DNA from: a virus
Reading direction: 5' to 3' (one strand)
IMG/VR virus record: IMGVR_UViG_3300045988_022071
Length of the DNA: 17,781 nucleotides
Under the pieces are notes generated by a model. That model was given only the letters and a program-made list of their open reading frames with translations, made no database searches and was not told the origin of the DNA. Below, one piece after another: positions 1 to 17,781 of the stretch. Within the stretch, counting starts at the first letter, position 1. Each line of letters begins with the position of its first letter. The position numbers and the translations under genes were made by a program.

Positions 1-142
1 TTTGCTTCTTTGTCTTGTTGTTTTCTGTTTTGTTTTCGTCTTTTTTATTGCTGGTTTTTTGTGTTGTTTTGTCTCGTGTTTTGGGCGCGTGGTTTTTTTG
101 TTTTTTTGTTGTCTTGGCGTGTCGTGTTTTTGGTTGTGCTAT
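1..142. repeat. Left inverted terminal repeat (ITR) of a linear genome
   Basis: The reverse complement of 17639-17781 matches 1-142 base for base, apart from one homopolymer indel (T7 at 93-99 versus the complement of A8 at 17682-17689). Identity ends after '...ggttgtgctat' (left pos 142). The repeat lies exactly at both window ends. Confidence 0.95.
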
Positions 143-215
143 TGTTTGGATTTTGTCCGAGGGATGTGAGGAGGGATTGTGTTTGAGGGTGCCGTGCTTG
201 ATGGTCTTATTGTTC

Positions 216-246
216 AATAAAAAAAGCCCCGCAATCTGCAGGGCTT
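216..246 (-). terminator. Rho-independent terminator closing the minus-strand transcription unit
   Basis: The minus-strand RNA reads AAGCCCUGC-AGAUU-GCGGGGCUU followed by UUUUUAUU. This is a roughly 9-bp GC-rich stem (224-232 / 238-246, one G.U pair) plus a U-tract, 16 nt after the endolysin stop (262-264). Confidence 0.8.
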
Positions 247-261
247 GTTCATGTTATGGTA

Positions 262-1053
262 TCACTCTACTGTGATGGTGAGCGAGTCTAGCTTTTCTTT
301 TATGGCTTTCTCTACGATTGCCGCGATTCTGTCGGGGTCTGCTCCTTGGTTTGCGGCGAGGGCTTTTACGGCTTCGGTGAGTGCGGTGATTTGCATGTCC
401 ATGATGTGCGTGTGCGCGTCGATATATCCAAGCCTATCTCCGAGTTTCGCGGTGGTGCCGTTGTATTTCACGGGCTGTTCGGTAATCAACTGGCCCATGT
501 TTGATGCGTGGGTCTTGTCGTCCCACTTGCTAAGGCGGTGAATTTCGTTGTTCGCGCCGTTTGCCGCTGTGTCGATGCCTTGCATGCGGTCGCGCATTTT
601 GACGCCGTTCTGATTGAAATTCCATACGGCTTCGGCGATGTCACTTGCGGTTGCCATGTCGTCATCTCCTAATTCTGGTATTGGTTGGTTTTCTATGTCG
701 CCGCTCCATCCGAGCGGCACGTATCCGTATTGGCGTATCCATTTGGATATGCTGTCTTCGTGTGGATGCCCGATGCTGCTATCGGTGGTGTACATCGTAT
801 CGCCTTCGAGGTGTAACGCGATGTGTCCGTAGGGATTGCCGGGTTGTGAGAAGTAGATGGGCGCGCCGTATGGTGCGGACGCTAAATCGCTTGTGGGATG
901 CGGTTCACTGCATCCGTTCCATGCGGCTATTGCGCTAGCGTATCGTGGTTCGGCCCCATAGGCGTCTTGGACGTGCGCTAGGCAGTATCCATTATAGCCT
1001 GTGTTGAGGACCGACCGTGCGTGCTCAACGGCTGCCGGTGGTGTTCGTATCAT
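262..1053 (-). CDS. Endolysin: N-terminal CHAP/NlpC-P60-type cysteine peptidase or amidase, plus a C-terminal non-catalytic domain
   Basis: 263 aa. A candidate catalytic Cys lies in 'NGYCLAHVQDAYG' and a His in 'NPYGHIALHLEGD'. The gene is last in the late operon, directly after the holin. RBS AAGGAGG sits 9 nt upstream of the ATG. The C-terminal half ('DIAEAVWNF...', 'DPDRIAAIVEKAIKEKL') resembles motifs I recall from actinophage lysin and tail proteins. Confidence 0.75.
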   Translation of the reverse strand: MIRTPPAAVEHARSVLNTGYNGYCLAHVQDAYGAEPRYASAIAAWNGCSEPHPTSDLASAPYGAPIYFSQPGNPYGHIALHLEGDTMYTTDSSIGHPHEDSISKWIRQYGYVPLGWSGDIENQPIPELGDDDMATASDIAEAVWNFNQNGVKMRDRMQGIDTAANGANNEIHRLSKWDDKTHASNMGQLITEQPVKYNGTTAKLGDRLGYIDAHTHIMDMQITALTEAVKALAANQGADPDRIAAIVEKAIKEKLDSLTITVE

Positions 1054-1408
1054 CGTTGTTTTCCTCCTTATTATAATCGGTGAAGACTTTCATGAATTCC
1101 GCTTGCGACAGCTGGGGATTGATTTTGCCGATGTTTTCGACTATGCTGGACAGCTCGATGAGAGCGATGCCTATGGTGACTATTGGGGTCAGTGCGCTGT
1201 GAAAACCGATGTCTATGTGCTTCATTTCGAAGTCAATGAACCATGCGATGAAGAACACGCAAAGATAGGCGAATTTATGGCCAAGACCCTCCCGCATTTT
1301 CGTGCTGGATAGATTGCCGTGCATTATGGCGCCGATGATTCCGGTAATGTAGTCTGTAATGGTGAACACGAGTACGGCTAGAATTTCGTAAAATAAAGTT
1401 TCCGTCAT
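1025..1408 (-). CDS. Holin (Phage_holin_4_1 / toxin-secretion-lysis holin family)
   Basis: 127 aa with several hydrophobic helices. Family-typical motifs are 'TDYITGIIGAIMHGNLSS.K...G..HK' and 'ELSSIVENIGKI'. The C-terminus is charged. RBS is GAGGAA. It overlaps the endolysin start by 29 nt. Confidence 0.8.
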   Translation of the reverse strand: MTETLFYEILAVLVFTITDYITGIIGAIMHGNLSSTKMREGLGHKFAYLCVFFIAWFIDFEMKHIDIGFHSALTPIVTIGIALIELSSIVENIGKINPQLSQAEFMKVFTDYNKEENNDDTNTTGSR

Positions 1409-1415
1409 CGTTTCC

Positions 1416-2558
1416 TCACTTTCTTATGCCTGACTGTTGTAACAAGCCGCCAAGAATCATACTGAATTCCGCCTTGATTTGCGGTGTCTCAAACCGTAGC
1501 CGGCCTACGCGATAAGCGTTTAATATCTTTTGCGTCATATCATCCGAACGTTTGAGCATAATGCAATCACTGTCGACCAGCCGATAATCGAACGTAAAGT
1601 CGCGGGTGATTTTCGGCTGTTTCTTTGTAATGATATACAATACCTCATCGGCATCGCTTAATTGTTGATATACGTTGAAAATACCGTATTCGGTGGTTCT
1701 CAGCGTGAACGCATAACCGGCGTTATTGAAGTCACTGATGAGGGTATTGGCGTTATCCATAAAATCATTGTCGATTGCATAGTTCGCATAGTTCTCGTCA
1801 TAGTTGCGTAGGAACGTACCGAATTTCGATGTGGCGACCTTGGCGCTGAATCCGCCGTAATCCGCCAATTCGACCATGATGAATCCGTCACAATAGCGCT
1901 GGTATTGCGTGTGGTTGTCAAGTTGTGGCTTGAGGTTGATATTGAAGGCGCTGAAATATGGGTTGGCGAGGGTTACGGCGTTGCTGCACATGATGACCCT
2001 CACGCGGTCGTTCCACCTGTCGACGGTATTATAGAATTCTTCAAGCGCCGTGACCTCGCCGCCGAGATAACGCATGTTATCGGGGAATATCTCATCGAAG
2101 ATAATGGTCCGTACCTTGGGGTAGGCGACCGACTTGACCTGACCGGCCTGACTGAGGGCGATGAAATACCCCATGATGTGCCATGTCGGGCGTGTCTTTC
2201 CGTGCTTGTCGGTGGTGGCATCCCTATCGTCCAGCCAGTGGCATTCCGCCTGATTGCCGGACACCCTGAACTCCAAATCCGGGTATTGTTCCGCGATGTC
2301 CGCAAACCACGTGCCTTTGTTCTTCTGTTCCTCCGCGGTGCGTCGCAGATAGATGAATTGCCAGCGTTTTTTAATCCAGTCACCGATGACCAGTTTCTTG
2401 GCGCCATAGGTCTTGCCGAGACCGCGGGCACCGATGACGAACATCCATGGCGCGTGATATGATAGCACGTGTCCATAGTCGTAGTAATCGCCTTCGTCTA
2501 ACAGTCTTTCCATGTTATCTATGATACCATATGACATCGACGACTGGTGGGCATCCAC
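1416..2558 (-). CDS. DNA encapsidation (packaging) ATPase, phi29 gp16-like
   Basis: 380 aa. Walker A is 'VIGARGLGKTYG' and Walker B is 'TIIFDEIF'. There is long colinear similarity to remembered phi29 gp16 ('LSY....FVIGARGIGKSY', 'QFIY.RR', 'CLSNAV...NPYF.FFN'). The start is uncertain: GTG at 2558 or ATG at 2537. Confidence 0.9.
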   Translation of the reverse strand: MDAHQSSMSYGIIDNMERLLDEGDYYDYGHVLSYHAPWMFVIGARGLGKTYGAKKLVIGDWIKKRWQFIYLRRTAEEQKNKGTWFADIAEQYPDLEFRVSGNQAECHWLDDRDATTDKHGKTRPTWHIMGYFIALSQAGQVKSVAYPKVRTIIFDEIFPDNMRYLGGEVTALEEFYNTVDRWNDRVRVIMCSNAVTLANPYFSAFNINLKPQLDNHTQYQRYCDGFIMVELADYGGFSAKVATSKFGTFLRNYDENYANYAIDNDFMDNANTLISDFNNAGYAFTLRTTEYGIFNVYQQLSDADEVLYIITKKQPKITRDFTFDYRLVDSDCIMLKRSDDMTQKILNAYRVGRLRFETPQIKAEFSMILGGLLQQSGIRK

Positions 2559-2573
2559 CGGCCTATCATCGCA

Positions 2574-3845
2574 CTAGCCGGCGATGTATCTGCGTATCTC
2601 CCATCGGCTCGCCATATTCATCTCACCGGACGCGGCGAACAGATTCGGGCCATTCCCCGGCCCCCCATGCGATAATGTTTCGTCCTTGCCGTCACCGGTG
2701 AACATTTCCACATGGTCCCATGACTGCGTGTATGCCCCCCAGTCCAGCAACAGCAAATCGGCGGCGTGTGCCATGCGGATGGCGTCGGATACGCTTGTGT
2801 CAGAGCTACCGCATACGCGCGTACCCTTGCCTGCCATCTGCCCCGTCCATGTACCCACGTCGAGACCCAACACATCCTGATATGCACGCCAACAGACCGA
2901 ACTGCAATCGCCATACCCGCTTGAATCCGGGTCCAACCGTCCTGCCCCCTGCGAGTAAGCGTATTTGCCGATTCGTGAACTCAACCATTCCACAACCCTC
3001 GCCGCATCCTTGCTACCGCTGCCCGAGCCTGAGCCGCCGCCAGTCTGTCCACCGCCCGGCTTAGTGGATTCGGAAGTCTTATATACCCATGTCTGCGCGG
3101 AGCTTTTCATGAAGACGGAAACGGCACTCCCGCTGTAAAGGATAAGGTTGTCGCCTTGCAATTGTATCCATGCGGTGCTGCCGGGCTTTCCGTCGATACC
3201 GGGTCGGTCGCCTCCGGGCGTGTCGGACGGTTCGGAGGTTTGGCCGAAGTCGGGCGGCGCGGAAGTGCCATCCCATGCGTTCAGGAGGTTATATGCGGTG
3301 GTGTACCGATTGCGGTATTGCCCCAGCACGCCGTCCGCCAAGATTGTCGTGTAAATCAGCTCAAGCGTGGCGGTGGCCGAGCATGACGCGAGTACGCGCT
3401 GCGCCTGTGCGGGCGACTGGTGGTAAGCGCACGCCCACATGATACGCTCTTTGACATTATCGGACGGGAACCCGAAATTGGTCATGGTTGACTGGTACCC
3501 GTCCCAATCCGCCTCCCATTGCGCCTCTTGAAAAGCGTGGTTTTCGTCGCGCTGCGCCCACGTCTTCCACGCATTGCCTTCGGCGGTGGATAGGTAGCGC
3601 GATGTCCAGTTGATGGTATTGGCCTGCACTTGCTGGGCTAATGTGGGTGCTGCCGTAGCGAACGTCGTCCATCCGTCCGGGTCTGCGGTGCGTCCGCGCT
3701 CCAAAAGATTCCGGGCACGATTGCCATACCATTGCATCATGCCCATAGTGATTGCGTCAACGTAATTGCACGCGCCCCAATCGCAATTGCTTTCCACGGT
3801 GCCGATTACGTACATCGCATAATATGCCGTATTGTCCATAATCAT
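2574..3845 (-). CDS. Tail-associated peptidoglycan hydrolase, phi29 gp13-like: N-terminal lysozyme-like domain, Gly/Ser linker, C-terminal NlpC/P60 peptidase
   Basis: 423 aa. The N-terminus 'GTVESNCDWG...GMMQWYG' parallels phi29 gp13 'GNMQSES...GLVQWTP'. The linker is 'GGGQTGGGSGSGSGS'. The C-terminus has 'GYGDCSSVCWRAY' (Cys) and 'WDHVEMFTG' (His), typical of NlpC/P60. Confidence 0.8.
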   Translation of the reverse strand: MIMDNTAYYAMYVIGTVESNCDWGACNYVDAITMGMMQWYGNRARNLLERGRTADPDGWTTFATAAPTLAQQVQANTINWTSRYLSTAEGNAWKTWAQRDENHAFQEAQWEADWDGYQSTMTNFGFPSDNVKERIMWACAYHQSPAQAQRVLASCSATATLELIYTTILADGVLGQYRNRYTTAYNLLNAWDGTSAPPDFGQTSEPSDTPGGDRPGIDGKPGSTAWIQLQGDNLILYSGSAVSVFMKSSAQTWVYKTSESTKPGGGQTGGGSGSGSGSKDAARVVEWLSSRIGKYAYSQGAGRLDPDSSGYGDCSSVCWRAYQDVLGLDVGTWTGQMAGKGTRVCGSSDTSVSDAIRMAHAADLLLLDWGAYTQSWDHVEMFTGDGKDETLSHGGPGNGPNLFAASGEMNMASRWEIRRYIAG

Positions 3846-3848
3846 AGT

Positions 3849-3878
3849 ATACCCCGCCCGGTGTACCGAGCGGGGTAT
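3849..3878 (-). promoter_or_regulatory. Intercistronic GC-rich stem-loop immediately upstream of the gp13-like start codon
   Basis: ATACCCCGC (3849-3857) pairs perfectly with GCGGGGTAT (3870-3878). On the mRNA the 3' arm (GCGGGGUAU) ends 3 nt before the AUG at 3845 and contains the only SD-like G-run. Confidence 0.55.
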
Positions 3879-3896
3879 GGTTCACGTGGAACGCCG

Positions 3897-5357
3897 TCAT
3901 TCTTGGCCGATAGGGCTGAAGCTCTGGGGTGTAATCCAGCAATTGCCGGACAACGTACCGCCGCCGACGACGCCGGTTATGGCCAGATCGCCATCGTCCA
4001 AGTGGGCAAACGCCTGCTGATTGCCCGCATTGCCCAGAATCATGATGAAATTATCCCCAAGGTCGATGAACTTCGGCAGCTTCGCAATGGTACCGGTCGG
4101 ACTGGAGGCGGTGAACTTCGCAGTGAGCGTCACCACGCCGCCCGAGAAACGCCAGTGAAGCTTACCCGAACAGCCGCCGGTCATAGGCACTTCGCCGCAA
4201 AGCTCACCCGCGCTCGGCTCGCAATCGCCCGCAATGGTCGAGGCGAGAATGCCGGCGATGTAATTCGCGCCGTCCTCATTGTAATGGGGGTCGTTCTTGT
4301 TGGCGAACCAATCGGGATGGCCCATGCCGAGCGTCCACGTCCATGGATGCCATGCTAGGCCATTCGCCGCCGCCGCCGATGCGATGCCGTTCATCGCCTG
4401 AGCGTTCGCATACGGAATGCCCGCATTGTCCCAGAGGAAAATGGCGTGGGCCGAAGCGTTCGGAAAATTCCGGCTCACACGCGACCCGGTACCCAGCAGC
4501 GCGTCGAAGACGCCTAACGCCGAACTGTACGTGTCGCCGGTATCGTTCCTACCGCCGCAGACCACCACGTACTTGACCTTCTTGCGGGCGTCGACATCCA
4601 TTGCGGAAAGCGCCTCGCTAGCGAGAGTAAGGAACGTCTTGCCCCCGTCGCCCGCCTTGCCATAGCCACTGGCGTTGTTGGCGAACACATGTAGGTTGAG
4701 TCCCAGCTTCGACGCGACACGCTGGGGGATACGCTTGCTTTCGGCGAGCGCGACACCTTGCGGCTGATAGCCGGTGCTCACACTGTCGCCAATCCACACC
4801 AGCTCGGTAAGGTCGGTGGTCACGGCGGCGACGGCGTTCACTGAGGTCTGCGCGGCGGCGGCCGTCGACTTCGCCATACCGGCGTCGTCCTTCGCCGCGG
4901 TGGCGGTGGAGTTGATGCTCGCCGCCGTACCGGAATACCCGCCTAATTGCAGATAACGACCATCCGACTCGCCCTTGGTGTACACGGAGCCGGCATCCAC
5001 CTTGCCTGCGAGGGCGCTGGAATCGGCCTTGCCGTTGATGGTGGTCAGCAGATTGCGCGCCGTGACCGCGGAGGTGATGCCAAGTTCGCCGAAATAGCCG
5101 TCCAATTCGGTAATATCGGTCTTATTGGCCTGTGCAAGGCTCAAGGCGTCATCGGCTGTGGTCTTCGCCTGACCCGCCGCCGTGTTCGCATTGTTCGCCG
5201 CCGCCGTCGCCGTGGTGATATCGGTCGCGTTCCTGTACATCTGCGCATCGATTCGGCTCATATCCGCGGTGTAATCGCCACGCCATGACGGCTTGTCATC
5301 CGGGCTGTCGCCGAATTGGCTGAGATTATAATGAGGGGTTTTGTTGAGACTACTCAT
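3897..5357 (-). CDS. Tail fibre / appendage protein with central SGNH (GDSL) esterase domain
   Basis: 486 aa from the ATG at 5357, with RBS GAGGAA upstream. The track ORF extends to 5468, but that extension looks non-coding. The N-terminus 'TPHYNLSQFGDSPDDKPSW' is fibre-anchor-like. An Ala/Thr-rich segment carries 'KADSSALAGKVDAGSVYTKGESDGRYLQ' fibre repeats. SGNH block I is 'LVWIGDSVSTGY' and block III is 'VVVCGGRNDTGD'. A block V-like 'NDPHYNEDG' is present. The C-terminal ~110 aa looks beta-rich. Confidence 0.75.
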   Translation of the reverse strand: MSSLNKTPHYNLSQFGDSPDDKPSWRGDYTADMSRIDAQMYRNATDITTATAAANNANTAAGQAKTTADDALSLAQANKTDITELDGYFGELGITSAVTARNLLTTINGKADSSALAGKVDAGSVYTKGESDGRYLQLGGYSGTAASINSTATAAKDDAGMAKSTAAAAQTSVNAVAAVTTDLTELVWIGDSVSTGYQPQGVALAESKRIPQRVASKLGLNLHVFANNASGYGKAGDGGKTFLTLASEALSAMDVDARKKVKYVVVCGGRNDTGDTYSSALGVFDALLGTGSRVSRNFPNASAHAIFLWDNAGIPYANAQAMNGIASAAAANGLAWHPWTWTLGMGHPDWFANKNDPHYNEDGANYIAGILASTIAGDCEPSAGELCGEVPMTGGCSGKLHWRFSGGVVTLTAKFTASSPTGTIAKLPKFIDLGDNFIMILGNAGNQQAFAHLDDGDLAITGVVGGGTLSGNCWITPQSFSPIGQE

Positions 5358-5511
5358 GGTGAGGTTCCTCGCTTTCAATACTACGGGCGGGCATGTCCAC
5401 CCGGACACTATTATAATCATCGGAAGTGGGCGCGTCCAATTGCGTGGCGGTAAGACCCGTTTCCTCATACTGGCTCAATCCGTAATGTTGAGTATGTTTG
5501 GAAGCCGTCAT
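5350..5511 (-). CDS. Small ORF (53 aa) carrying a second copy of the fibre N-terminal motif
   Basis: Hand translation gives MTASKHTQHYGLSQYEETGLTATQLDAPTSDDYNSVRVDMPARSIESEEPHHE. It is below the track's size cut-off. There is an ATGA start/stop overlap with the upstream frame, and its stop overlaps the fibre ATG. 'TQHYGLSQY' parallels 'TPHYNLSQF' of the fibre. Confidence 0.4.
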   Translation of the reverse strand: MTASKHTQHYGLSQYEETGLTATQLDAPTSDDYNSVRVDMPARSIESEEPHHE

Positions 5512-5609
5512 GGTCGCACCTCGCCGTTCGCGAAGTTCGACACGGTCGGATTACGTTGGACGTAAGTGGCGTTCGCATCGAACTTGGTCAAGTAAATGTC
5601 AGCCGGTTC
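5508..5609 (-). CDS. Coding-looking segment (33 codons) with no start of its own; probable C-terminal extension of the upstream 179-aa gene
   Basis: 'EPADIYLTKFDANATYVQRNPTVSNFANGEVRP' has GC-rich third positions and a fibre-like 'YLTKFDANATY' motif. There is no in-frame ATG or GTG after the upstream stop. Removing one G from the G4 run at 5611-5614 fuses it in frame with 5608-6147. Confidence 0.4.
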   Translation of the reverse strand, partial: EPADIYLTKFDANATYVQRNPTVSNFANGEVRP

Positions 5610-6147
5610 ACCCCTCGGGAATGCTCTTGCCGTAGGGGAATTGGGACCGTCCCGGAAAATCCCCGGGTACGCAATTGTCGACGGCGGTGGCGCGGAGGTC
5701 ATATTCGCGGGCGCTCAATTCCAAAGCGTCATACGTGGATGCTTCCAATTCCATATCATCATAATCGGACCAGAACAACGCATGATCGCGAACATTATCA
5801 TACATGCCGTCAAGTACCGTCTGCAAAGCATCCTGCCTACCATACGCCGGCGACCACGCCAGCCCGGATGCCTGCGATTGCCCGATAAGCCGGATAAGCT
5901 CCTCACGGAGTATGGCCATCTGGCTGGTCAGATTGTCGGCGAGTTGCCGGATGGCGGCGTCATTGTCCGCAACCGACTGGTTCACCTGTTCGACCAGCGT
6001 ATTAAAATCGGACTGCAAACCGTCGAGATTGCACCGGATGCATTCGATTAGCTGCAACGTGGTCGCCCCGTCACGGTAGGTGAACGGCACCGACGTCGGG
6101 ATGCGCACCAGCGGATAGGCGCGCGGAACAAGGGCATTAACTGACAT
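5608..6147 (-). CDS. Structural protein of unknown function (coiled-coil), sited between lower collar and fibre genes
   Basis: 179 aa from the ATG at 6147, with RBS GGGAG 5 nt upstream. The track start at 6159 overlaps the upstream stop. A predicted coiled-coil covers 'LDGLQSDFNTLVEQVNQSVADNDAAIRQLADNLTSQMAILREELIRLIG'. Its position suggests a tail or fibre accessory role. Confidence 0.6.
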   Translation of the reverse strand: MSVNALVPRAYPLVRIPTSVPFTYRDGATTLQLIECIRCNLDGLQSDFNTLVEQVNQSVADNDAAIRQLADNLTSQMAILREELIRLIGQSQASGLAWSPAYGRQDALQTVLDGMYDNVRDHALFWSDYDDMELEASTYDALELSAREYDLRATAVDNCVPGDFPGRSQFPYGKSIPEG

Positions 6148-6149
6148 TT

Positions 6150-6941
6150 TTACTCCCATTCTCCATAGTTATGGTAGTTACTGAAAATGGTATCATACGA
6201 GCCCCACACCTGCATGAAGCACGGTTCAAGGCTCCTGATGACTTCCATGTCCACATTGATGACCGCCTGCCGGTATTCCTGAATCAGGCTCATGGCCGAC
6301 TGGCTACGCCCCGTCACATGACTCAAACCCTTGGAATTGCTCGAATCATGCTGAAAATCAGTGGCACTCTGAGCGGTGGTGTGACTGGTCGAATCCTGCG
6401 AGCTGGACGCGGTGCCCAAACTGTCCGCCTGCGACTCGTTCGCATGGGAGGCGTAGCGCGAAAAATCGCCTACAACGCCGGTCTGCGGCACGTCGCTGTC
6501 GAAGCTCCTAGACGTGGTGGTGCTGCTGTTATCCGACTTACTGGTGCTGTTGCTGGTCGAATCCTGCATACTGGACGCCTTGCCGGATGACTGGGATTCG
6601 CTGCCGTTCTCACTGTCCGTGGTCATGTCCATGGAATCCAACGGATTGTATTCCAGGTCCAGCGTCCTGTAGCGTTCGTTGAAATAGGGCATAATCTCCG
6701 CCATCGTCATGCCCAGATAGAAGACGAACTGCTGCGCGGTCTCCTGTCCAATCTCCCGCAGTGCGTAATGGCGGACTATCTTCTCATTCAATTCCGCGCG
6801 GTGAGATTCGTCGTAAATCGGGTAATAGTCAGCGGACAAGTGCAGCTTGGCGTCCGTGTCATACCCCATGGCGACGAGATTGCCAAGGGTCTCGGTGTAC
6901 TCACCGGGCGTCTCCATCGCATAGGCACTAAAATCCTGCAT
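6150..6941 (-). CDS. Lower collar protein, phi29 gp11-like
   Basis: 263 aa. It lies immediately downstream of the connector gene, as in phi29. The N-terminal motifs 'RHYALREIGQETAQQFVFYL' and 'MAEIMPYFNERY' match lower-collar proteins of small podophages as I remember them. The central region is S/T/D/Q-rich and low-complexity. The start uses a TGATG overlap with the portal stop, with RBS GGAGG upstream. Confidence 0.65.
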   Translation of the reverse strand: MQDFSAYAMETPGEYTETLGNLVAMGYDTDAKLHLSADYYPIYDESHRAELNEKIVRHYALREIGQETAQQFVFYLGMTMAEIMPYFNERYRTLDLEYNPLDSMDMTTDSENGSESQSSGKASSMQDSTSNSTSKSDNSSTTTSRSFDSDVPQTGVVGDFSRYASHANESQADSLGTASSSQDSTSHTTAQSATDFQHDSSNSKGLSHVTGRSQSAMSLIQEYRQAVINVDMEVIRSLEPCFMQVWGSYDTIFSNYHNYGEWE

Positions 6942-7891: not shown

Positions 7892-7903
7892 GACACCATC
7901 ATA

Positions 7904-10204: not shown

Positions 10205-10219
10205 CGTCCTCCGGTATGA

Positions 10220-10260
10220 CAAGACCCGGAACGCTCACGTGGGTCACGTTCCGGGTCTTG
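10220..10260 (-). promoter_or_regulatory. Strong stem-loop (14-bp perfect stem) between the capsid and tail-knob genes
   Basis: CAAGACCCGGAACG (10220-10233) pairs with CGTTCCGGGTCTTG (10247-10260) around a 13-nt loop that contains CACGTG. No U-tract follows. The tail-knob RBS begins 8 nt downstream on the mRNA. Confidence 0.6.
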
Positions 10261-10280
10261 ACTTGCATCACACCGTGAGA

Positions 10281-10302
10281 GAGTGTGGCTTAAGCCACAC
10301 TC
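10281..10302 (-). promoter_or_regulatory. 22-bp perfect palindrome (hairpin) 8 nt after the major capsid stop codon
   Basis: GAGTGTGGCTTAAGCCACACTC is its own reverse complement. It could form a 9-bp stem with a UUAA loop. No U-tract follows. Confidence 0.6.
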
Positions 10303-10310
10303 CCATTATA

Positions 10311-12047: not shown

Positions 12048-12069
12048 GATAATGCTCCTTTGCTAATGG

Positions 12070-12411
12070 TTATTCTTCGTAGAGGTCGTCGAATGTGCTG
12101 TAGGTGCCGTTATAGTCGTCGTCGGTCATCTCGGACGGTTCCGGCTCCTTATCGTCGTCGGGGCCGTCGTTCAGCATGTGTTCGGCCGCCGTGTCCCGCA
12201 TCGCCTCAATGGTCTTCGACAATTCGGCCACGGTCGCTTCGAGAGCGCTGAGACGGTTGGCCATGTCGGCGTTCTTATCGTCTCCCGCGTCCTCCGGTTC
12301 GCCATCGTCCTGAGCTTGAAGCTCCGGGTTCGGCGCATTGTCGTCGGCGGTCGCGTCCGGCTCGGTATCGGGCGCGGTGTCCGGCTTGTCATCGTTTTCG
12401 GCGTCGTCCAT
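12070..12411 (-). CDS. Scaffolding protein (phi29 gp7 analogue)
   Basis: 113 aa from the ATG at 12411, with RBS AAGGGG upstream. It is extremely acidic (D/E-rich ends) and has a central helical 'MANRLSALEATVAELSKTIEAM'. It lies immediately upstream of the capsid gene, as in phi29. Confidence 0.65.
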   Translation of the reverse strand: MDDAENDDKPDTAPDTEPDATADDNAPNPELQAQDDGEPEDAGDDKNADMANRLSALEATVAELSKTIEAMRDTAAEHMLNDGPDDDKEPEPSEMTDDDYNGTYSTFDDLYEE

Positions 12412-12431
12412 AATCACCCCTTAAGGTTAAT

Positions 12432-12459
12432 GGCCCGGCAGCAATCACACCGCCGGGCC
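12432..12459 (-). promoter_or_regulatory. GC stem-loop just upstream of the scaffold RBS, inside the 180-nt non-coding gap
   Basis: GGCCCGGC (12432-12439) pairs with GCCGGGCC (12452-12459), a perfect 8-bp all-G/C stem with a 12-nt loop. No U-tract follows. Confidence 0.55.
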
Positions 12460-12597
12460 GGGTTGCTAGGTTGTGCGGGTTCCCTCGCCGTCAATGGGCG
12501 TTGGCTACGCACGTCTACATCCGACCGAATCGCCTTACCGATTGCCTGTCGGTCGGGCCATCGAATCAGCTTGGGACGCACACCCCGCTACCGATGA

Positions 12598-14058
12598 TTA
12601 TAGCACGAAAGTATGGCCACTGTCATTACGATGGCGAGACCCCGGCAGAAACCGGTCATAAGAGATGGGGGCGGCGCGATGCACACCACTCAACCGCATC
12701 ACTGTGCCGCCGTCTTCCTCTACGCCGCAATATTTGCGATTGCCGAGAATACGAAGTTTTTCGTAGGTGTGGTCGTTCTTCCATGCGCCCAGCTTCCTGT
12801 CGTCCGTTTTGATTCCCGTGGGCGCATCCAGCCCCTCCAATATCATGCCGTCCGTGTCGGCGTAGAGCACACGTTCGGCGTTCGCATTCATTGCACGGGA
12901 GAGTATCTGCCGCCCGTAAGCGTTGACATAGGCGGCGGTCGGCAGCCATGCCAGTGAGTTGGTCGACTCGGGTCGTTCCACGGTAAAATCCACTCCGCCA
13001 TCCGTGGACGGCTTCGGATGCAGCATGGGCCGGTAGAGCGATGCCCCGAACTTCCCTACCAGCGAATTCAACAGCAGTTTCGCCATCTGCCTCCGTTCCC
13101 CGGTCGCGGTCTGCTTTACGCGAAACCACTTGTCCACATACTCACGGTAGAGGCCGTGCGACTTGCGGAATTTCCAGCCGCCGACATAGTCCCACACGTG
13201 GACGTCATAGTTTTCCGCAAGCGTCTGCCAATCCACATCCGTGACCGGCATGGTGACGACACCGAGCGTACTGTCCAAGCGTTCGCCCTCATACCCCCAT
13301 ACGGGCAAGATGTTGGTGAGCGTCGACGTCTTCCCCGTCTTCAGTTTTGCGTCAAACGCGACGACATCGATATGCAGCGGATAATCGTCATCATCTCGAT
13401 ATTCCCCGTCATACCATACGGGGGCACCTACCGGCATGGGCATATCGCACATGACGCTCGGATAAAGACTGTTTACGTCCCAGCTCCTGCAATCCCGGTA
13501 TTCACCCGGCTTGCTGTGTACTATCGCCCCATAGTAGGCGGGACGCATCCGGCGATAATCCTTCTTGTCCAGTGGTGGAAAACGGCGTTTGAACCCGGCA
13601 TAATCCCCGTCGATATAATCGGTCATCGCCATGGACGCTATGGTGGCGCCCCTGAGATTCAATGCGGCGCATTCCTGCGCGATGTTCCACGTGGTTTCCA
13701 AGTCGGAGGCTCCCCCGAACGTCTCACGTGAGACGTTTAACCCATCATCGCGCGTGATATTGCGCACGTCCAGAAAATCCACGGTGATGCCGCCCATACG
13801 CACGCGGAAACTGTAGAAGTGGCCGCGAATGTTGAACGTCCCCCATACGCCGTCCTTGCTGGGGTTCGGTTGCAACGGAAGACGTTTCAGTAGTTCGGCG
13901 GCTATGGGCTTGATATCCTGCCATCCGTGGGCACACCATACGCGCGTATGATAATCGAGCATGGTGAGACGGATGACGGCAGAGGCCGTTAACGATTCCA
14001 CACCGTCATCCGTCAATAGCGTTGCACCGTCTGTCGCCGCCGTTCGACGCTCTTTCAT
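12598..14058 (-). CDS. Protein-primed family-B DNA polymerase (phi29 gp2-like, DNA_pol_B_2 type)
   Basis: 486 aa. Motif A is 'WDVNSLYPSVM', motif B is 'KLLLNSLVGKFG', motif C is 'VLYADTDGMILEG', and the KxY region is 'LGNRKYCG'. 'WKFRKSHGLYREYVDKW' parallels phi29 'LKFKATTGLFKDFIDKW'. RBS AGGATGGAG. The gene is adjacent to the candidate terminal protein, and the genome has ITRs. Confidence 0.92.
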   Translation of the reverse strand: MKERRTAATDGATLLTDDGVESLTASAVIRLTMLDYHTRVWCAHGWQDIKPIAAELLKRLPLQPNPSKDGVWGTFNIRGHFYSFRVRMGGITVDFLDVRNITRDDGLNVSRETFGGASDLETTWNIAQECAALNLRGATIASMAMTDYIDGDYAGFKRRFPPLDKKDYRRMRPAYYGAIVHSKPGEYRDCRSWDVNSLYPSVMCDMPMPVGAPVWYDGEYRDDDDYPLHIDVVAFDAKLKTGKTSTLTNILPVWGYEGERLDSTLGVVTMPVTDVDWQTLAENYDVHVWDYVGGWKFRKSHGLYREYVDKWFRVKQTATGERRQMAKLLLNSLVGKFGASLYRPMLHPKPSTDGGVDFTVERPESTNSLAWLPTAAYVNAYGRQILSRAMNANAERVLYADTDGMILEGLDAPTGIKTDDRKLGAWKNDHTYEKLRILGNRKYCGVEEDGGTVMRLSGVHRAAPISYDRFLPGSRHRNDSGHTFVL

Positions 14059-14070
14059 AACTCCATCCTT

Positions 14071-15015
14071 TTAGTGTCGTGCTGCGCTGGTCATCCATTC
14101 GTCGATTCGCGTTTCCACATCACCTGCATCCGCTTTGGTCTCCCATTTATGCGCCTTATCATTATACCACGTCGCTTCACGCACCACGGCGCTAAAATTC
14201 GTGTTGTTCATCAGCCAGCGTTTTTGACGGTCGGACAAAGACGCGAATTTTTGCGCTACACTGGAGTCGAATGCCTCCAACTGCTGCTCGACTCTACCAA
14301 AATCCGTAGCCCCTTCGCTCTCGGGAATCCACTTGGTTCCCGCGCGTAGCGGCGCGCGTCCTACAAGCCCGGCGTACTCCAATATCTCCTGTTCGAGTTT
14401 CCCGCGGCCTCCGTCTCGTATCATCGCGCGCGCATGGCTTATGCCACGTTCCGTCCCGAATACGTTCGCTCGGCTCCGCGTGAGGTCGTCACGCGCTGAG
14501 CCGCCGACCGTATGAGTGCCCAGTACGTCGAACGGTGATTCGCCCGCGCGTTCCATCTCACGCACTTCGCCCACGGTATAGTAGGCCATGCTCAGCGCAT
14601 CGAATTGCTGAGCACGTTTGATTTTCCGCCGCGCCTCAATCCGGCGGCGCTGCTGCTGACGCAGCGTCTTCCGCCGTTTCGACGGAGCGTTGGCTATTTC
14701 CGCATCGGTAATCAGCGGTCGTACCGCCATCTCCCTGTCGAGTTTTGTAATCCGCACGTCGGGCACGACTTGATACGGTTCGTCATCCCGCGCCCTCAAG
14801 GCTTGCTGTTGTTCCCCGAATTCCTGTCCGATACGTCGCGTGACCTGTTCAAGCTGCTGGGCGCTGAGCTTTCCCAAAAACGTTTCCGTGATTTGCTTGG
14901 GGAGACGTCCGGTACTGTAGTCCCTTACCGCTCGCTCCTGACGTACCTGCGCTGACCTGATTGCGGCATTGCGTTTCAGATTGTTGGCGCGTCGGTTGGC
15001 TTTGCGTTTTGCCAC
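14071..15015 (-). CDS. Candidate terminal protein (phi29 gp3 analogue)
   Basis: 314 aa, GTG start with RBS AAGGAGAGG. The gene is directly upstream of the protein-primed polymerase, matching phi29 gene order 3-2. The N-terminus is very basic ('MAKRKANRRANNLKRN', 'KRRKTLRQQQRRRIEARRKIKR'), reminiscent of the DNA-binding N-terminal domain of the phi29 terminal protein. No clear sequence homology is visible by eye. Confidence 0.5.
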   Translation of the reverse strand: MAKRKANRRANNLKRNAAIRSAQVRQERAVRDYSTGRLPKQITETFLGKLSAQQLEQVTRRIGQEFGEQQQALRARDDEPYQVVPDVRITKLDREMAVRPLITDAEIANAPSKRRKTLRQQQRRRIEARRKIKRAQQFDALSMAYYTVGEVREMERAGESPFDVLGTHTVGGSARDDLTRSRANVFGTERGISHARAMIRDGGRGKLEQEILEYAGLVGRAPLRAGTKWIPESEGATDFGRVEQQLEAFDSSVAQKFASLSDRQKRWLMNNTNFSAVVREATWYNDKAHKWETKADAGDVETRIDEWMTSAARH

Positions 15016-15034
15016 AGCCTCTCCTTACGAGTGT

Positions 15035-15080
15035 AAAACACCCCCCCCCGCCGCAAGGATGGAAACGACGAGGGAGGGTG
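15035..15080 (-). terminator. Terminator-like hairpin containing a G9 homopolymer, between the SSB-like and terminal-protein genes
   Basis: In the minus-strand RNA, CACCCUCCC (15072-15080) pairs with GGGGGGGUG (15039-15047) and is followed by UUUU (15035-15038). The + strand has C9 at 15041-15049. The hairpin ends about 19 nt before the terminal-protein GTG. Confidence 0.45.
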
Positions 15081-15143
15081 AGTCTGGCGGCAACATCCCC
15101 TATAGGGACATTACCATATTATCAAATAGTGTGGACATTCACG

Positions 15144-15581
15144 TTACTTGCGCTTGTTCTCGGACACCAATTCGAGGTCGAAGAACTTATAGCCGCGGCG
15201 GCTCTTCTTTTCCACCACCTTAAGGGCGAGGGGCGCGGTCCACGTGTCCGGCGTACCGAAAATGGCGAACAGATTGCCAAAAGCGTGCGCCAGCGCGGGT
15301 GAGGCGGCGGCGAAGTCACCCTCTTCTGCGTGAATGACGACGCGGGTAGAAGAGTTAATTTCGCCGGTTTCCTGATTAGCGACCTCGATGGCCTGTGCAA
15401 GCACGTTGGTGACGTGCAATGGTTCATTAAGGTGTTCGTCAACCTTGTCGGCGGTCTGCATGGCGTTGTACAGCGCCATCTTACCGTCCATGGTAGTGGT
15501 GTCGAAGAAGTGGGATACGGCGTTAGTGCCGTTCGCAGAAAAGTTGTTGCCGTTTACTACAGTCAGTTCGTTGTCAGCCAT
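15144..15581 (-). CDS. Putative phage single-stranded DNA-binding protein (lactococcal-phage SSB-like family; phi29 gp5 analogue by position)
   Basis: 145 aa. The pattern 'L.NA...D..L.....V.........ETGE....R.V....EG.....S......I..IFG.P..W..P..LKV.....RG..F..LELV' matches my recollection of the Phage_SSB family. RBS GAAAGG. The gene lies upstream of the terminal protein and polymerase. Confidence 0.5.
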   Translation of the reverse strand: MADNELTVVNGNNFSANGTNAVSHFFDTTTMDGKMALYNAMQTADKVDEHLNEPLHVTNVLAQAIEVANQETGEINSSTRVVIHAEEGDFAAASPALAHAFGNLFAIFGTPDTWTAPLALKVVEKKSRRGYKFFDLELVSENKRK

Positions 15582-15617
15582 GATTATTACCTTTCCATAT
15601 AGGGGTTATTACTTATT

Positions 15618-15923
15618 TTACTCAGAGATGACATCATCTTCAACTACGTTGCCGTTCACCGGCCCCGGATAGTCGACAATGGTATCATCTCCAAACTCAC
15701 AATTAGCCCAATAGATTGCCTCACCCATGCGCGTCTCCTGCGCATGATATTCAGCGGACATGGGCAGCATGTCCTTGTTAATCTTACGGGCCTTCTTCAT
15801 TGCCATGTCAGCCGTACGGCACGCGCCATCTACGACCACTTCGGCGTCAATAAGTTCACCGTTTTCGCCGCGCGTGACGCCATGCACGATACTGTAATGC
15901 TTTGCTCGCTTAATGTATGCCAT
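15618..15923 (-). CDS. Hypothetical early protein; possible phi29 p6-like dsDNA-binding protein by size and synteny
   Basis: 101 aa, RBS AGGTGG. The C-terminal tail is acidic ('VVEDDVISE') and the centre is basic ('MAMKKARKINK'). It occupies the gene-6 position in the order 6-5-(4)-3-2. Confidence 0.3.
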   Translation of the reverse strand: MAYIKRAKHYSIVHGVTRGENGELIDAEVVVDGACRTADMAMKKARKINKDMLPMSAEYHAQETRMGEAIYWANCEFGDDTIVDYPGPVNGNVVEDDVISE

Positions 15924-15946
15924 AATTATACCACCTTATTGTAATG

Positions 15947-16474
15947 TTACTGCTGTTGTGACATTCTTGCGATGTCTGTATCAGTATACCGCGATTCGGT
16001 TAAGTTGTCAAAACAGCGACACGCGATTTTGACGATTGTCTGAGCGAATTCAATGCCATCCCAGACTTTGCACATCTCATAGCATGACGCGCCCTTGACG
16101 TGGCAGACCGCACACCACGCCACCAACGCCGGGGCATAGATGACACCGCCCAGCATCTCAATGTCCTGAGTTCGCGCTAACGCGCCAATACGGGACGTAT
16201 GCGGGGACAACGACAGGCAAACGTCTGCCGCATGTTCGAGGCTGTCAGCAAATGCCACCTGCGCCCCTTGAGGCTCATAAAAGTCCTTGAGCAGTGCTAT
16301 ACTACGGCATAATGTCTCCCAATCGCCCTCACTTCGATTGTATTCGCGCAAGTGCAGATTACGGCGACGGCCACGAATGACACGACGCACACGGTCATCA
16401 TTAAGCACGTCGTCATCAAACCAGTTCGTACGTTTTTCGCTGTTATCAAAATTCAAATTCTTCGAACTCATCAT
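15947..16474 (-). CDS. Hypothetical early protein (175 aa, Cys-rich C-terminal half)
   Basis: Intact ORF with RBS GGAG 5 nt upstream and a TAATG overlap with the upstream gene. I recognise no motif. Confidence 0.6.
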   Translation of the reverse strand: MMSSKNLNFDNSEKRTNWFDDDVLNDDRVRRVIRGRRRNLHLREYNRSEGDWETLCRSIALLKDFYEPQGAQVAFADSLEHAADVCLSLSPHTSRIGALARTQDIEMLGGVIYAPALVAWCAVCHVKGASCYEMCKVWDGIEFAQTIVKIACRCFDNLTESRYTDTDIARMSQQQ

Positions 16475-16677
16475 TAAAACTCCAACATATCTCCAACACT
16501 ATTATAGCCGTCCATCCACATCACCCTCCACAGATAACCGCTCGGGCAACGTTTTGGCGGACTATAAGAACCATGCTTGCCCTTCACGCCCGCACGAAAC
16601 GCGCGTAAACGCCAATAACCATCAGCATCAGGACAATCGCCACACGTCCATGAATGAATCCACCCACGAAAATACAC
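16474..16677 (-). CDS. Hypothetical small early protein (67 aa, Trp-rich, one CxxC)
   Basis: A GTG start at 16677 is preceded by AGGGA and follows the upstream TAG by 1 nt. The track's longer 96-aa version overlaps the upstream gene. T-ending codon bias matches the neighbouring early genes. Confidence 0.45.
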   Translation of the reverse strand: MYFRGWIHSWTCGDCPDADGYWRLRAFRAGVKGKHGSYSPPKRCPSGYLWRVMWMDGYNSVGDMLEF

Positions 16678-16678
16678 G

Positions 16679-16924
16679 CTAATCCCTATCCAAGAGTGGC
16701 GTACGGGCAATGTCGATAGCATCCAGCATAAGACCAGCAACTTGAGAACTATCAGCCGCGTCATATGCGCACGCCGCCATGCAGTTATTAGAACCAGCTA
16801 AAGTACAGAGCCTAACAGTATATCGAAGCTCATACCGATGATCGAGAGGACAATACCACAGACGCACACCACCGCCTGCAAACGGCGACGTAAACACGGC
16901 AACCTTCATATCACGCATACACAT
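16679..16924 (-). CDS. Hypothetical small early protein (81 aa)
   Basis: The ATG at 16924 is preceded by GAAAGGA about 8 nt upstream. The track ORF's upstream extension (to 16993) is Cys/Phe-rich and lacks an RBS. Confidence 0.5.
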   Translation of the reverse strand: MCMRDMKVAVFTSPFAGGGVRLWYCPLDHRYELRYTVRLCTLAGSNNCMAACAYDAADSSQVAGLMLDAIDIARTPLLDRD

Positions 16925-17011
16925 GTTCAGAATCCTTTCACTACTAAAACCAATACAAAAGCCACACATACACCAAGCACATCCAAAAAACAATAAAGTT
17001 TATAAGTAACA

Positions 17012-17242
17012 TTATACCAGCACCACCCTTACCATGCCAATCATAGCATTATCCGTATCGAATGTTGCGTTATCAATATCCACGCTCACATCCATACCAG
17101 AATAGGCGGCACGAACGTGGGATAATACACCATCCAGCGACGCCTTCAGCGACGTCGCATGAAACATGCAACTAGGTTTCACACAGTCAGGCAAAATCTC
17201 AAACACCTGAAAACCATCATCAGTAATAATAAAAAACCACAT
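17012..17242 (-). CDS. Hypothetical small early protein (76 aa, acidic)
   Basis: The ATG at 17242 lies 1 nt after the upstream TGA, with GGAGGGG about 9 nt upstream. The track's longer 164-aa version is a hydrophobic out-of-frame overlap with the upstream gene. Confidence 0.55.
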   Translation of the reverse strand: MWFFIITDDGFQVFEILPDCVKPSCMFHATSLKASLDGVLSHVRAAYSGMDVSVDIDNATFDTDNAMIGMVRVVLV

Positions 17243-17243
17243 A

Positions 17244-17600
17244 TCAGCATTCCCCTCCAAGTTCGACCAAGTCGTATCTGTCACCCTTAACCGCATCAAA
17301 CCGGCCGAGCTTAAGACCATAATCCGCAAGATACTCATTAGCAGAAGCCTCCCAATCAAGACCACAAACGGCTCCGCAAATACCAGTAACCCTCTCAGCA
17401 TCAACATCATGAAATAAATCATAATCATCGCCAACACAAGGGTCAAAATACCAAGAATAATCACCAGTCTGTTGCCATGCGCCCCAACCAGTAATATCGT
17501 CAGCAAATATCAACGACGTCCAACCATCGTCACCTATAACAGCAACCAAGTTAGCCGGTATTTCTCTACCGGAGTGAACGTCAAACCCTATTATATTCAT
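17244..17600 (-). CDS. First gene downstream of the right end: strongly acidic 118-aa protein of unknown function
   Basis: The ATG at 17600 has RBS AAGGAG 8 nt upstream. The track ORF's N-terminal extension into the ITR is a translation artefact. Hand count gives 17 Asp + 6 Glu against 4 Arg + 2 Lys. Confidence 0.7.
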   Translation of the reverse strand: MNIIGFDVHSGREIPANLVAVIGDDGWTSLIFADDITGWGAWQQTGDYSWYFDPCVGDDYDLFHDVDAERVTGICGAVCGLDWEASANEYLADYGLKLGRFDAVKGDRYDLVELGGEC

Positions 17601-17635
17601 TTTTATTGCTCCTTTCCCTTGAACTTGATAATTAC

Positions 17636-17644
17636 AGTATAGCA
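17636..17644 (-). promoter_or_regulatory. Candidate extended -10 early promoter (TGcTATACT) straddling the right ITR boundary
   Basis: The minus strand reads ...GGTTGTGCTATACTGTAATT..., with TG at 17644-17643 and TATACT at 17641-17636, about 36 nt upstream of the first ATG. No convincing -35 box is present. The first three bases of the hexamer come from the ITR. Confidence 0.35.
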
Positions 17645-17781
17645 CAACCAAAAACACGACACGCCAAGACAACAAAAAAACAAAAAAAACCACGCGCCCA
17701 AAACACGAGACAAAACAACACAAAAAACCAGCAATAAAAAAGACGAAAACAAAACAGAAAACAACAAGACAAAGAAGCAAA
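17639..17781. repeat. Right inverted terminal repeat (ITR), 143 nt
   Basis: Reverse complement of the left ITR, with one extra A in the A8 run at 17682-17689. It diverges from the left end at 17638. Confidence 0.95.

Follow-up and report, generated by a model that had tools for sequence, protein, structure and literature searches.

Does a phi29-like phage outside the Bacillus phages encode a prohead RNA (pRNA), and where in its genome would such an RNA lie? This question is raised by a 17,781-nucleotide (nt) stretch of viral DNA, IMG/VR record IMGVR_UViG_3300045988_022071, which was analyzed at its full length and is called the window below. Between its genes for a protein-primed DNA polymerase and a candidate scaffold protein we found a conserved structured RNA. 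The pRNA is considered a peculiarity of phi29 and its Bacillus relatives, and how it arose is a matter of debate (PMC5066667, PMC11476376). In phi29 it is 174 nt long: domain I accounts for 117 nt and is joined through a linker to domain II, a hairpin. Pairing between molecules involves the CE bulge loop and the D loop, and the known pRNAs are only 12% similar in sequence (PMC5066667).

We tentatively propose, with a confidence somewhat short of even, that phi29-like phages of Bifidobacterium encode the pRNA as the first ~130-165 nt of the late transcript and not at the genome end, and that the polymerase of the same clade has kept the exonuclease fold and lost proofreading catalysis. With high confidence, the window itself represents an uncultured, virulent podophage of the phi29 type from the human gut, most likely infecting Bifidobacterium; its linear genome is near-complete, with about 105-113 nt missing at each end.

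A conserved structured RNA between the polymerase and scaffold genes

The polymerase stop (12598) and the scaffold ATG (12411) are separated by about 185 nt, which the gene caller left empty. The RNA fold was computed from just downstream of the promoter motif TGCTATAAT, and none of 200 shuffled sequences was as stable (Table 1). The predicted structure had two parts. Domain I (about 12461-12592) contained a long helix, in which the 5' end of the transcript paired with a segment about 125 nt downstream, and a three-way junction with two arms. Arm 1 carried a 5'-side internal loop and an apical loop, and arm 2 was a short hairpin. After a short linker came a separate 12-bp hairpin with a GUGA loop (12432-12459). 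A 55-amino-acid (aa) open reading frame (ORF) at 12414-12581 was considered as a gene and rejected: stop codons broke it in most relatives, and its nucleotides were conserved as RNA structure.

The spacer was 84-96% identical among relatives whose genomes averaged about 82% identity to the window. In an alignment of 62 sequences, 99.2% of the cells were paired, compared with at most 44% when the partners were slid by 1-3 columns. Eight pairs showed compensatory changes, and the covariation score was above all 500 shuffles.

The same topology and promoter were present in five more clades. Three of them had polymerases with 76%, 55% and 44% identity to that of the window, and the other two were represented by the cultured phages BadAztec1 and BD811P1. 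The spacers of the other clades folded independently to this topology, and the 55% and more distant clades shared little sequence with the window. In all six clades the promoter motif was found at the same place at the polymerase stop, and the Leu codon there was always the rare CTA. Five clades kept the loop sequence (C)GUGAUUG in the 3' hairpin while the stem changed completely (equivalents in L116, L118, L120 and L002), a pattern that points to recognition of a specific sequence and not to a simple terminator. Complementarity between the internal loop of arm 1 and the apical loop of arm 2 was seen in four of the six clades. Three sequence pairs were used: GGC/GCC in the window and the 76% clades, GACUA/UAGUC in the 55% clade, and ACCGC/GUGGU in BD811P1.

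Prohead RNA or regulatory leader

By analogy, the layout of this RNA matches the published description of the phi29 pRNA: a closing helix, a junction, complementary loops and a 3' hairpin domain, arranged as domain I, linker and domain II (PMC5066667). The loops corresponding to the phi29 intermolecular pair are mutually complementary, with sequences that differ by clade. A motor with a gp16-type ATPase and a connector whose N-terminus is basic would probably need such an RNA. No other candidate RNA was found in an Rfam search or in a rough structure scan across the window, in which only 8 mononucleotide shuffles were made per scanned segment and the z-scores are approximate. We judge the chance that the structured RNA is a pRNA to be even at best and possibly somewhat lower.

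Several observations weigh against this identification. Two of the six clades showed no loop complementarity in their minimum-energy folds. The GGC/GCC pair was invariant within the clade of the window, so it provides no covariation evidence there. No Rfam pRNA family matched the whole window or the candidate region alone at E values up to 10, and only chance-level hits were returned. Separately, a covariance model built from the clade of the window found only the window and the 76% clade; it was too sequence-specific (effective sequence number 0.7) and missed the distant clades.

The topology, the complementary loops, the type of motor and the lack of another candidate RNA also argue against the alternative that the RNA is a 5' leader regulating the late genes, to which we still give a nearly even chance. 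Such a leader might act in attenuation or antitermination, bind a phage protein as its operator, or stabilise the mRNA. The position fits it well: the RNA lies directly upstream of the late genes, and no second promoter follows it in the window, so the late mRNA must include it. Actinomyces phage Av-1 has a shorter leader at the same place between its polymerase and late genes; it lacks the three-way junction, and its 3' end forms a terminator-like hairpin immediately ahead of the ribosome-binding site. BD811P1 differs from the window here: its 3' hairpin forms a terminator, with a second promoter downstream. A conserved GUGAUUG loop on a variable stem is also what is expected for a protein-binding site.

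For the pRNA identification, the distant phages add mixed comparisons. BadAztec1 has an RNA of the same topology at the same place, with a different 3' hairpin loop (UGAAA) and without loop-loop complementarity in its minimum-energy fold. In Av-1, the annotated putative pRNA is encoded beyond the lysis genes, and its fold is weak (-14.6 kcal/mol). In phi29 the pRNA is encoded at the left genome end, unlike the RNA in the window, which resembles it in size, domain layout and interlocking loops.

The polymerase keeps the exonuclease fold and lacks an intact set of exonuclease motifs

The Pfam match of the polymerase was limited to residues 133-342, and the sequence match to phi29 polymerase in the PDB covered residues 155-444 only, leaving the N-terminal 133-154 residues without a profile match. 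The AlphaFold model (mean predicted local distance difference test score, pLDDT, 90.7) superposed on phi29 polymerase over its full length with a TM-score of 0.83-0.84, indicating that the N-terminal exonuclease fold was kept. The enzyme is about 90 residues shorter than those of phi29 and Av-1. Its relatives from Bifidobacterium phages were all short, with 469-488 aa (genes at L001 12858-14267 and L002 13004-14455, for example). TPR1, TPR2 and polymerase motifs A, C and KxY were intact, as in protein-primed family B polymerases. Motif B read NSLVGK instead of NSLYGK and the thumb hairpin was deleted. Both changes were clade-wide, whereas Av-1 and other long forms keep these features.

The exonuclease motifs were compared in multiple and profile-profile alignments. 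The intact set of ExoI (DxE), ExoII (Nx3D) and ExoIII (Yx3D) was absent from the polymerase and from all its Bifidobacterium-phage relatives. At the position of the ExoI Glu stood Ala, Val, Thr, Arg, Ser or Lys; Gly took the place of the ExoII Asn; and a deletion of about 26 residues had removed the ExoIII Tyr. The ExoI Asp (Asp10) was the only catalytic residue invariant in the clade. In long-form relatives including Av-1, all five catalytic residues were invariant or nearly so. In phi29 polymerase, single substitutions at catalytic exonuclease residues cut the activity by orders of magnitude. We infer from the alignments that the polymerase is probably proofreading-deficient. No mention of proofreading loss in Bifidobacterium-phage polymerases was found in the literature searched.

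It is unlikely that the enzyme retains a working proofreading exonuclease through a non-canonical catalytic set. The retained fold and the invariant Asp10 would fit such an activity; Asp48 aligns with the ExoII Asp, and Asp118 may align with the ExoIII Asp. Asp48 and Asp118 were not conserved clade-wide, however, and the losses at the ExoI Glu, ExoII Asn and ExoIII Tyr contrast with the near-complete conservation of all five residues in the long forms.

The genome extends beyond both ends of the window

Inverted repeats of 142 and 143 nt were located exactly at the two ends of the window, and their sole difference was one T in a homopolymer run. The sequence-only reading had taken them as the inverted terminal repeats (ITRs) of a complete genome with physical ends. 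The inverted repeat is there, but related contigs extended past both ends. ENA contig L005 was 100% identical to window positions 311-17781 (17,471 nt) and contained 113 nt beyond the right end. Contig L115, 99.1% identical, ran 40 nt past position 1 (L115 2665-2704). Reverse-complemented, these 40 nt are the inner part of the extension seen in L005, indicating that the repeat is longer than the window shows.

IMG/VR was then scanned for the outer motif. More than 20 related loci ended at a conserved 5'-AAAAGGAGGGGAGGGG, and seven contigs had it at both ends. The termini of the relatives all read 5'-(A)AAAAGGAGGGGAGGGGnCCCAGCAGCTA (ends of L086-L111). In L092, L098 and L104, Illumina TruSeq adapter sequence (...GTGCTCTTCCGATCT) was joined directly to AAAAGG, and this junction marks a real DNA end. 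Leftover Nextera or TruSeq adapters at the ends of IMG/VR contigs (L022 1-47 and the three contigs above) are contaminants, yet they mark physical DNA ends. From the extensions in L005 and L115 and the conserved adapter-ligated terminus of the relatives, the true ITR is estimated at ~250 nt and the genome at ~18.0 kb; the ~105-113 nt missing per end would include no gene.

ITR lengths among the relatives ranged from 223 to >600 nt. The first ~30 nt of the termini were conserved among relatives whose ITR interiors differed, and this conserved terminus probably forms the replication origin. The terminal nucleotide reiteration used in sliding-back was present in the relatives at their adapter-ligated 5'-AAAAGG ends, from which the end of this strain is deduced.

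We give almost no credence to the view that the window ends (5'-TTTGCTTC...) are the physical termini of a complete genome. In its favor, the inverted repeat reaches both ends exactly and the sequence begins with a TTT run. It is contradicted by the identical and 99% identical contigs that continue past both ends with the same sequence, and by the different, conserved and adapter-ligated terminus of the relatives. Symmetric truncation is expected when an assembler collapses the ITR into one graph node or shared path. A search of IMG/VR with the first 27 nt of the window found no match, which was the first hint against a conserved terminus at that position. The lesson for completeness calls is that an exact terminal inverted repeat on a contig is no proof of physical ends.

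Gene content and order

With 17,781 nt and inverted terminal repeats, the window fits the genome form of phi29-like phages (linear double-stranded DNA of ~12-25 kb with ITRs). Its features are listed in Table 1.

Table 1. Features of the window, listed from its right end to its left end (MFE, minimum free energy; GC3, G+C at third codon positions; SSB, single-stranded DNA-binding protein; TP, terminal protein)
Feature	Position	Strand	Basis or remark
Right ITR, inner part only	17639-17781		Inverted repeat; genome estimated to run ~105-113 nt past 17781
Candidate early promoter TGCTATACT	17636-17644	minus	Inner edge of right ITR, ~40 nt upstream of first gene
Hypervariable early region, GC3 0.35-0.53	16474-17600	minus	Few or no intact homologues among relatives
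Two conserved early genes	15618-15923 and 15947-16474	minus	Intact in 69-72/72 relatives, 80-89% aa identity
SSB, phi29 type	15144-15581	minus	Pfam Phi29_Phage_SSB, E = 1.2e-14
Two hairpins between SSB and TP genes	15030-15110	minus	z = -4.7
TP candidate, 314 aa	14071-15015	minus	Synteny: SSB-X-polymerase order as in phi29 and Av-1
Protein-primed DNA polymerase, 486 aa	12598-14058	minus	Pfam DNA_pol_B_2, E = 1.6e-34
Extended -10 promoter TGCTATAAT	12597-12605	minus	Overlaps last codons and stop codon of polymerase gene
Conserved structured RNA, candidate pRNA	12432-12592	minus	MFE -86.3 kcal/mol, z = -4.1
Scaffold candidate, acidic, 113 aa	12070-12411	minus	Position before capsid gene and composition; weak match to BadAztec1 gp14
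Major capsid protein, phi29 type, C-terminal Ig-like domain	10311-12047	minus	Pfam Phi29_MCP, E = 6.6e-86; Big_2
Two strong hairpins, capsid/tail-knob gap	10223-10310	minus	MFE -65.8 kcal/mol, z = -6.5, 0/200 shuffles as stable
Tail knob (gp9-like), 765 aa from ATG with GGAGG ribosome-binding site	7904-10201	minus	Pfam phi29_gp9_C, Caud_tail_N; PHROG 2248, E = 8e-90
Head-tail connector/portal (gp10)	6941-7891	minus	Pfam Phage_connector, E = 1.9e-42
Lower collar (gp11-like)	6150-6941	minus	PHROG 3225, E = 3.6e-29; PHROG 5472, E = 4.1e-23
Conserved structural protein	5608-6147	minus	39% identical to BadAztec1 gp09; no family match
Tail fibre/appendage with SGNH/GDSL esterase domain, 486 aa from internal ATG	3897-5357	minus	Pfam Lipase_GDSL_2, E = 5e-6, below gathering score; L005 gene call
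Tail-associated cell-wall hydrolase candidate, 423 aa	2574-3845	minus	Positional analogue of phi29 gp13; homologue of Av-1 'antireceptor'
gp16-type packaging ATPase	1416-2537	minus	Pfam Podovirus_Gp16, E = 3.5e-44, profile 2-319/331; PHROG 2150; L005 gene call
Holin	1025-1408	minus	Pfam Phage_holin_4_1, E = 7.5e-17
Putative endolysin, 263 aa	262-1053	minus	Directly after holin; PHROG 12298 and 19265 sole matches
Intrinsic terminator ending the single transcription direction	214-246	minus	10-bp stem with 6 GC pairs, then TTTTTTT
Left ITR, inner part only	1-142		Inverted repeat with right end

The G+C content was 56.0% over the whole window, with 47-51% at the ends and 55-64% in the center. Codon-position analysis placed every long ORF with gene-like codon composition (GC3 0.61-0.80) on the minus strand, where ORFs spanned about 95% of the window. 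Long plus-strand ORFs had the mirror pattern with high GC1 (G+C at first codon positions), as expected of frames antisense to real genes. These results indicated that coding is confined to one strand. Plus-strand ORFs such as the 387-aa frame at 10239-11402 were ruled out as genes by the same analysis. In the direction of transcription, the order was small early ORFs, SSB, the 314-aa protein, polymerase, the 113-aa acidic protein, capsid, tail knob, connector, lower collar, small structural ORFs, the GDSL fibre-like protein, the 423-aa protein, ATPase, holin and putative endolysin. The SSB-TP gap was non-coding, and no tRNAs were found in the window.

Much of what the sequence-only reading had claimed about the genome held. 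It had described a phi29-type, presumably protein-primed podophage, and eight hallmark proteins matched phi29-family profiles (SSB, DNA_pol_B_2, capsid, tail knob, connector, lower collar, gp16 ATPase and holin). The codon analysis agreed with its assignment of all genes to the minus strand, and its count of 40 G+C in the 60 nt at 8401-8460 was reproduced, as was its placement of the ATPase gene before the lysis cassette of holin and putative endolysin. It had recognized no gp4-like activator or head-fibre gene, and Pfam and PHROG profile searches of the window proteins likewise gave no homologue of gp4, gp6 or the head fibre. Of the traits of the Salasmaviridae, neither diverging early and late operons nor a late activator of the gp4 type was seen, all genes being on one strand. 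Its gene inventory was largely backed by profile matches; its terminal-protein, scaffold, gp13-like and endolysin labels were backed by position and composition, and not by profiles.

Profile searches gave no family match for the scaffold candidate. The 423-aa hydrolase candidate occupies the gp13-like position; its NlpC/P60 match was weak (E = 0.01, below the curated threshold), and weak CHAP matches occurred in relatives. It was 54% identical to its BD811P1 homologue, 51% to that of BadAztec1 and 30% to Av-1 gp14. For the ATPase, whose ORF reaches a GTG at 2558, the ATG at 2537 was used as the start. The Podovirus_Gp16 match covered nearly the whole profile, in line with a gp16-type ATPase without a nuclease domain. 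The endolysin had been named by the sequence-only reading; its location after the holin supports the name, and neither a Pfam family nor a PDB entry matched. Its N-terminal half is papain-like with Cys/His, and residues 122-262 matched B. scaligerum and B. olomucense loci at 41-42% identity. Exact-protein look-ups with the full endolysin and holin returned nothing, as the gene calls differ; a 131-aa C-terminal call did match.

The N-terminal ~45 residues of the GDSL fibre-like protein (5220-5357) resembled the N-terminus of BadAztec1 gp06 and also gp07, a protein of its own with 55 aa (L001 5409-5543 and 5587-5703). This segment may be a shared tail-attachment module.

The TP candidate has a basic N-terminus, and homologues occurred in all relatives at 30-34% identity. 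Its predicted fold was all-helical with a small C-terminal hairpin (pLDDT 74.9). Tyr284 and His289 were invariant across two clades only ~30% identical, and both lie in the predicted C-terminal beta-hairpin. In this model Tyr284 is a possible priming residue. In BFVD the protein matched only its own uncharacterised relatives; the next best match was the terminal protein of Microbacterium phage PineapplePizza (E = 0.29). The protein is a terminal-protein candidate by synteny only.

The full set of virion, packaging and lysis genes argues against the window being a linear plasmid or a resident (integrated or pseudolysogenic) Bifidobacterium element instead of a free virulent phage. Profile searches of the window proteins found no integrase, partition or repressor gene, and hundreds of contigs of 16.5-19 kb stopped at the same terminus and not in host DNA. 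One homologous polymerase is filed under a Bifidobacterium breve metagenome-assembled genome (MAG), and a review of phi29-like phages notes plasmid-labelled relatives in Firmicutes (PMC11476376). Even with these two records, we regard a resident element as very improbable, and a virulent phage remains the reading adopted here.

Transcription signals and the early region

The extended -10 motif TGCTATNNT occurred six times, at 137-145 (+), 2459-2467 (-), 12597-12605 (-), 16295-16303 (+), 17040-17048 (-) and 17636-17644 (-). The expected number was 1.2, and none of 200 shuffles reached six. Besides the copies at the right ITR edge and the polymerase stop, another was located upstream of the third early ORF. 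The copy at the left ITR edge faces inward on the plus strand; no gene follows it in the window, and an annotated gene does so in BadAztec1 and BD811P1.

The left-end terminator consists of a hairpin at 246-224 and a T-run to ~214. The sequence-only reading had noted a single clear terminator just inside the left ITR. The terminator is strong, but it is not alone. Of the two hairpins in the SSB-TP gap (128 nt), the second looks like a terminator: its 16-bp stem is rich in G/C, and UUUU comes next. It may act internally, setting the TP and polymerase genes apart from the early genes that precede them. Further strong hairpins come after the capsid gene. The two hairpins between the capsid and tail-knob genes have 10-bp and 15-bp stems without a U-run after them. 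They may stabilise the mRNA or set the capsid-to-tail expression ratio.

The two conserved early genes had no family match in Pfam or PHROG. In the hypervariable region, the most credible ORFs were 17244-17600 and 17012-17242, which have good ribosome-binding sites. Among isolates, the first early gene (17244-17600) had a single homologue, which BD811P1 carries at the other genome end and on the opposite strand (L002 18-314, +). The ITRs of 400 to >600 nt in some relatives would include such an early gene.

Comparison with named phages

Phages BD811P1-3 and BP1 (unclassified Caudoviricetes, isolated from human gut or sewage) have the same core gene order and strand as the window. The BD811P1 group also shares the short polymerase with lost exonuclease motifs, and the structured RNA and promoter between the polymerase and scaffold genes. 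Proteins of this group were 36-37% identical to those of the window for polymerase and capsid, and 48-54% for tail knob, connector, collar, ATPase, SSB and g18. There was no similarity at the nucleotide level, and the early region differed.

BadAztec1/2/4 (Badaztecvirus) and BadAargau2, from the honeybee gut, have the same synteny, with the core genes on one strand. BadAztec1 has a perfect ITR of 259 nt and a short polymerase of 469 aa. Identity to the window was 42-44% for the capsid and only 34% for the polymerase in this group. Badaztecvirus has a G+C content of 48.8%, compared with 56% in the window, and differs in host species and habitat.

Av-1 (Dybvigvirus, 17,171 bp with ITRs) had been suggested as a comparator by the sequence-only reading, and it was an apt choice: its gene order was the same and aa identities were 29-38%. 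It encodes SSB, TP, polymerase, capsid, tail, connector, collar, ATPase, holins and endolysin. Its core genes are on one strand like those of the window, yet four small genes at one end are on the opposite strand. Unlike the window, it has a full-length polymerase (566 aa) with all exonuclease motifs.

phi29 (Salasmaviridae, Bacillus) shares SSB, a polymerase with TPR1/TPR2, an Ig-domain capsid protein, gp9, gp10, gp11 and gp16, and an A-run at the termini. It differs from the window in its divergent early and late operons under gp4/gp6 control, its head fibre, its proofreading polymerase, its 6-bp ITR, the position of the ATPase gene after the lysis genes, and its G+C content of 40%.

Relatives, abundance and host

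A megablast search of the whole window against 50,697 phage records found no match, and the genus-level nucleotide similarity (~70% over the genome) to Badaztecvirus or other cultured relatives was absent, their proteins being 30-54% identical. By protein, the nearest cultured phages were all Bifidobacterium phages, with only 34-54% identity. Uncultured relatives were abundant. In IMG/VR, 125 contigs carried related capsids, of which the 80 kept were 89-95% identical, and more than 80 polymerase clusters were 83-95% identical. The 90%-identity capsid cluster had 3,733 members, and the closest IMG/VR genome was ~92% identical over 16 kb.

The sequence-only reading had allowed for near-identity to a described phage. 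Identical capsid and TP-candidate proteins were found in GenBank (DAX10609.1 and DAX10623.1, 'MAG TPA: Caudoviricetes sp.'), but that record is uncharacterised and the cultured phages are distant. The layout that it had singled out as noteworthy was not: coding on one strand, lack of gp4 and head fibre, the ATPase gene before the lysis genes and a G+C content above 50% are common to Av-1, BadAztec1 and BD811P1. Nor is the G+C content unusual for the group, as the reading had supposed. A 2024 survey of 2,115 phi29-related genomes, actinobacterial lineages included, gives values up to 65.9% (PMC11476376). Its suggestion of a high-GC, actinobacterial host we judge to be right.

Indirect evidence makes Bifidobacterium the most likely host. 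All the nearest isolates infect Bifidobacterium, the C-terminal half of the endolysin occurs in Bifidobacterium genomes, and an 88% identical polymerase is labelled 'MAG: Bifidobacterium breve'. In an infant-gut virome study, phi29-like phages predicted to infect Bifidobacterium were among the most abundant tailed-phage families.

Proposed life cycle

The life cycle can be sketched by analogy with phi29. The terminal protein encoded just upstream of the polymerase would prime replication at both ends, within ITRs of ~250 nt. The real termini are expected to be 5'-AAAAGGAGGGG, and their A-run would permit sliding-back. The 486-aa polymerase, with its TPR1 and TPR2, would copy the genome by strand displacement, probably without proofreading. 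Transcription would proceed in one direction. The extended -10 promoter at the right ITR edge would serve the early genes, and the second promoter, at the polymerase stop, would serve the structured RNA together with the genes for scaffold, capsid, tail, ATPase and lysis, up to the terminator at the left end. The gp16-type ATPase would package the DNA through the gp10 connector. In phi29 this motor needs an RNA adaptor, and no feature of the window is a better candidate for that role than the structured RNA.

Four further points weigh against this account and the genome description on which it builds. The promoters, transcript ends and replication mode are predictions from sequence. The TP candidate showed no significant link to known terminal proteins in Pfam, PHROGs, a PDB-sequence profile search, or Foldseek searches against PDB and BFVD. 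The outermost bases of L005 (GGGGGCAG) are aberrant and differ from the consensus end, and the exact terminus of this strain is deduced from relatives. The host call is indirect, and the 'B. breve' label may have arisen by faulty binning.

Implications

The genome alone adds little: it is another member, with a typical layout, of an abundant and already catalogued group of gut phi29-like phages. Its interest lies in the RNA and the polymerase. If the structured RNA is a pRNA, comparative evidence would for the first time support a pRNA in phages other than those of Bacillus. An analogous RNA in distant actinobacterial phages, encoded at another locus, would make the evolution and the minimal requirements of pRNA testable. 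If the reading of the polymerase is true, these phages would form a natural clade of strand-displacing protein-primed polymerases without proofreading, which bears on phage mutation rates, and a compact exo-minus phi29-type enzyme would be of practical interest.

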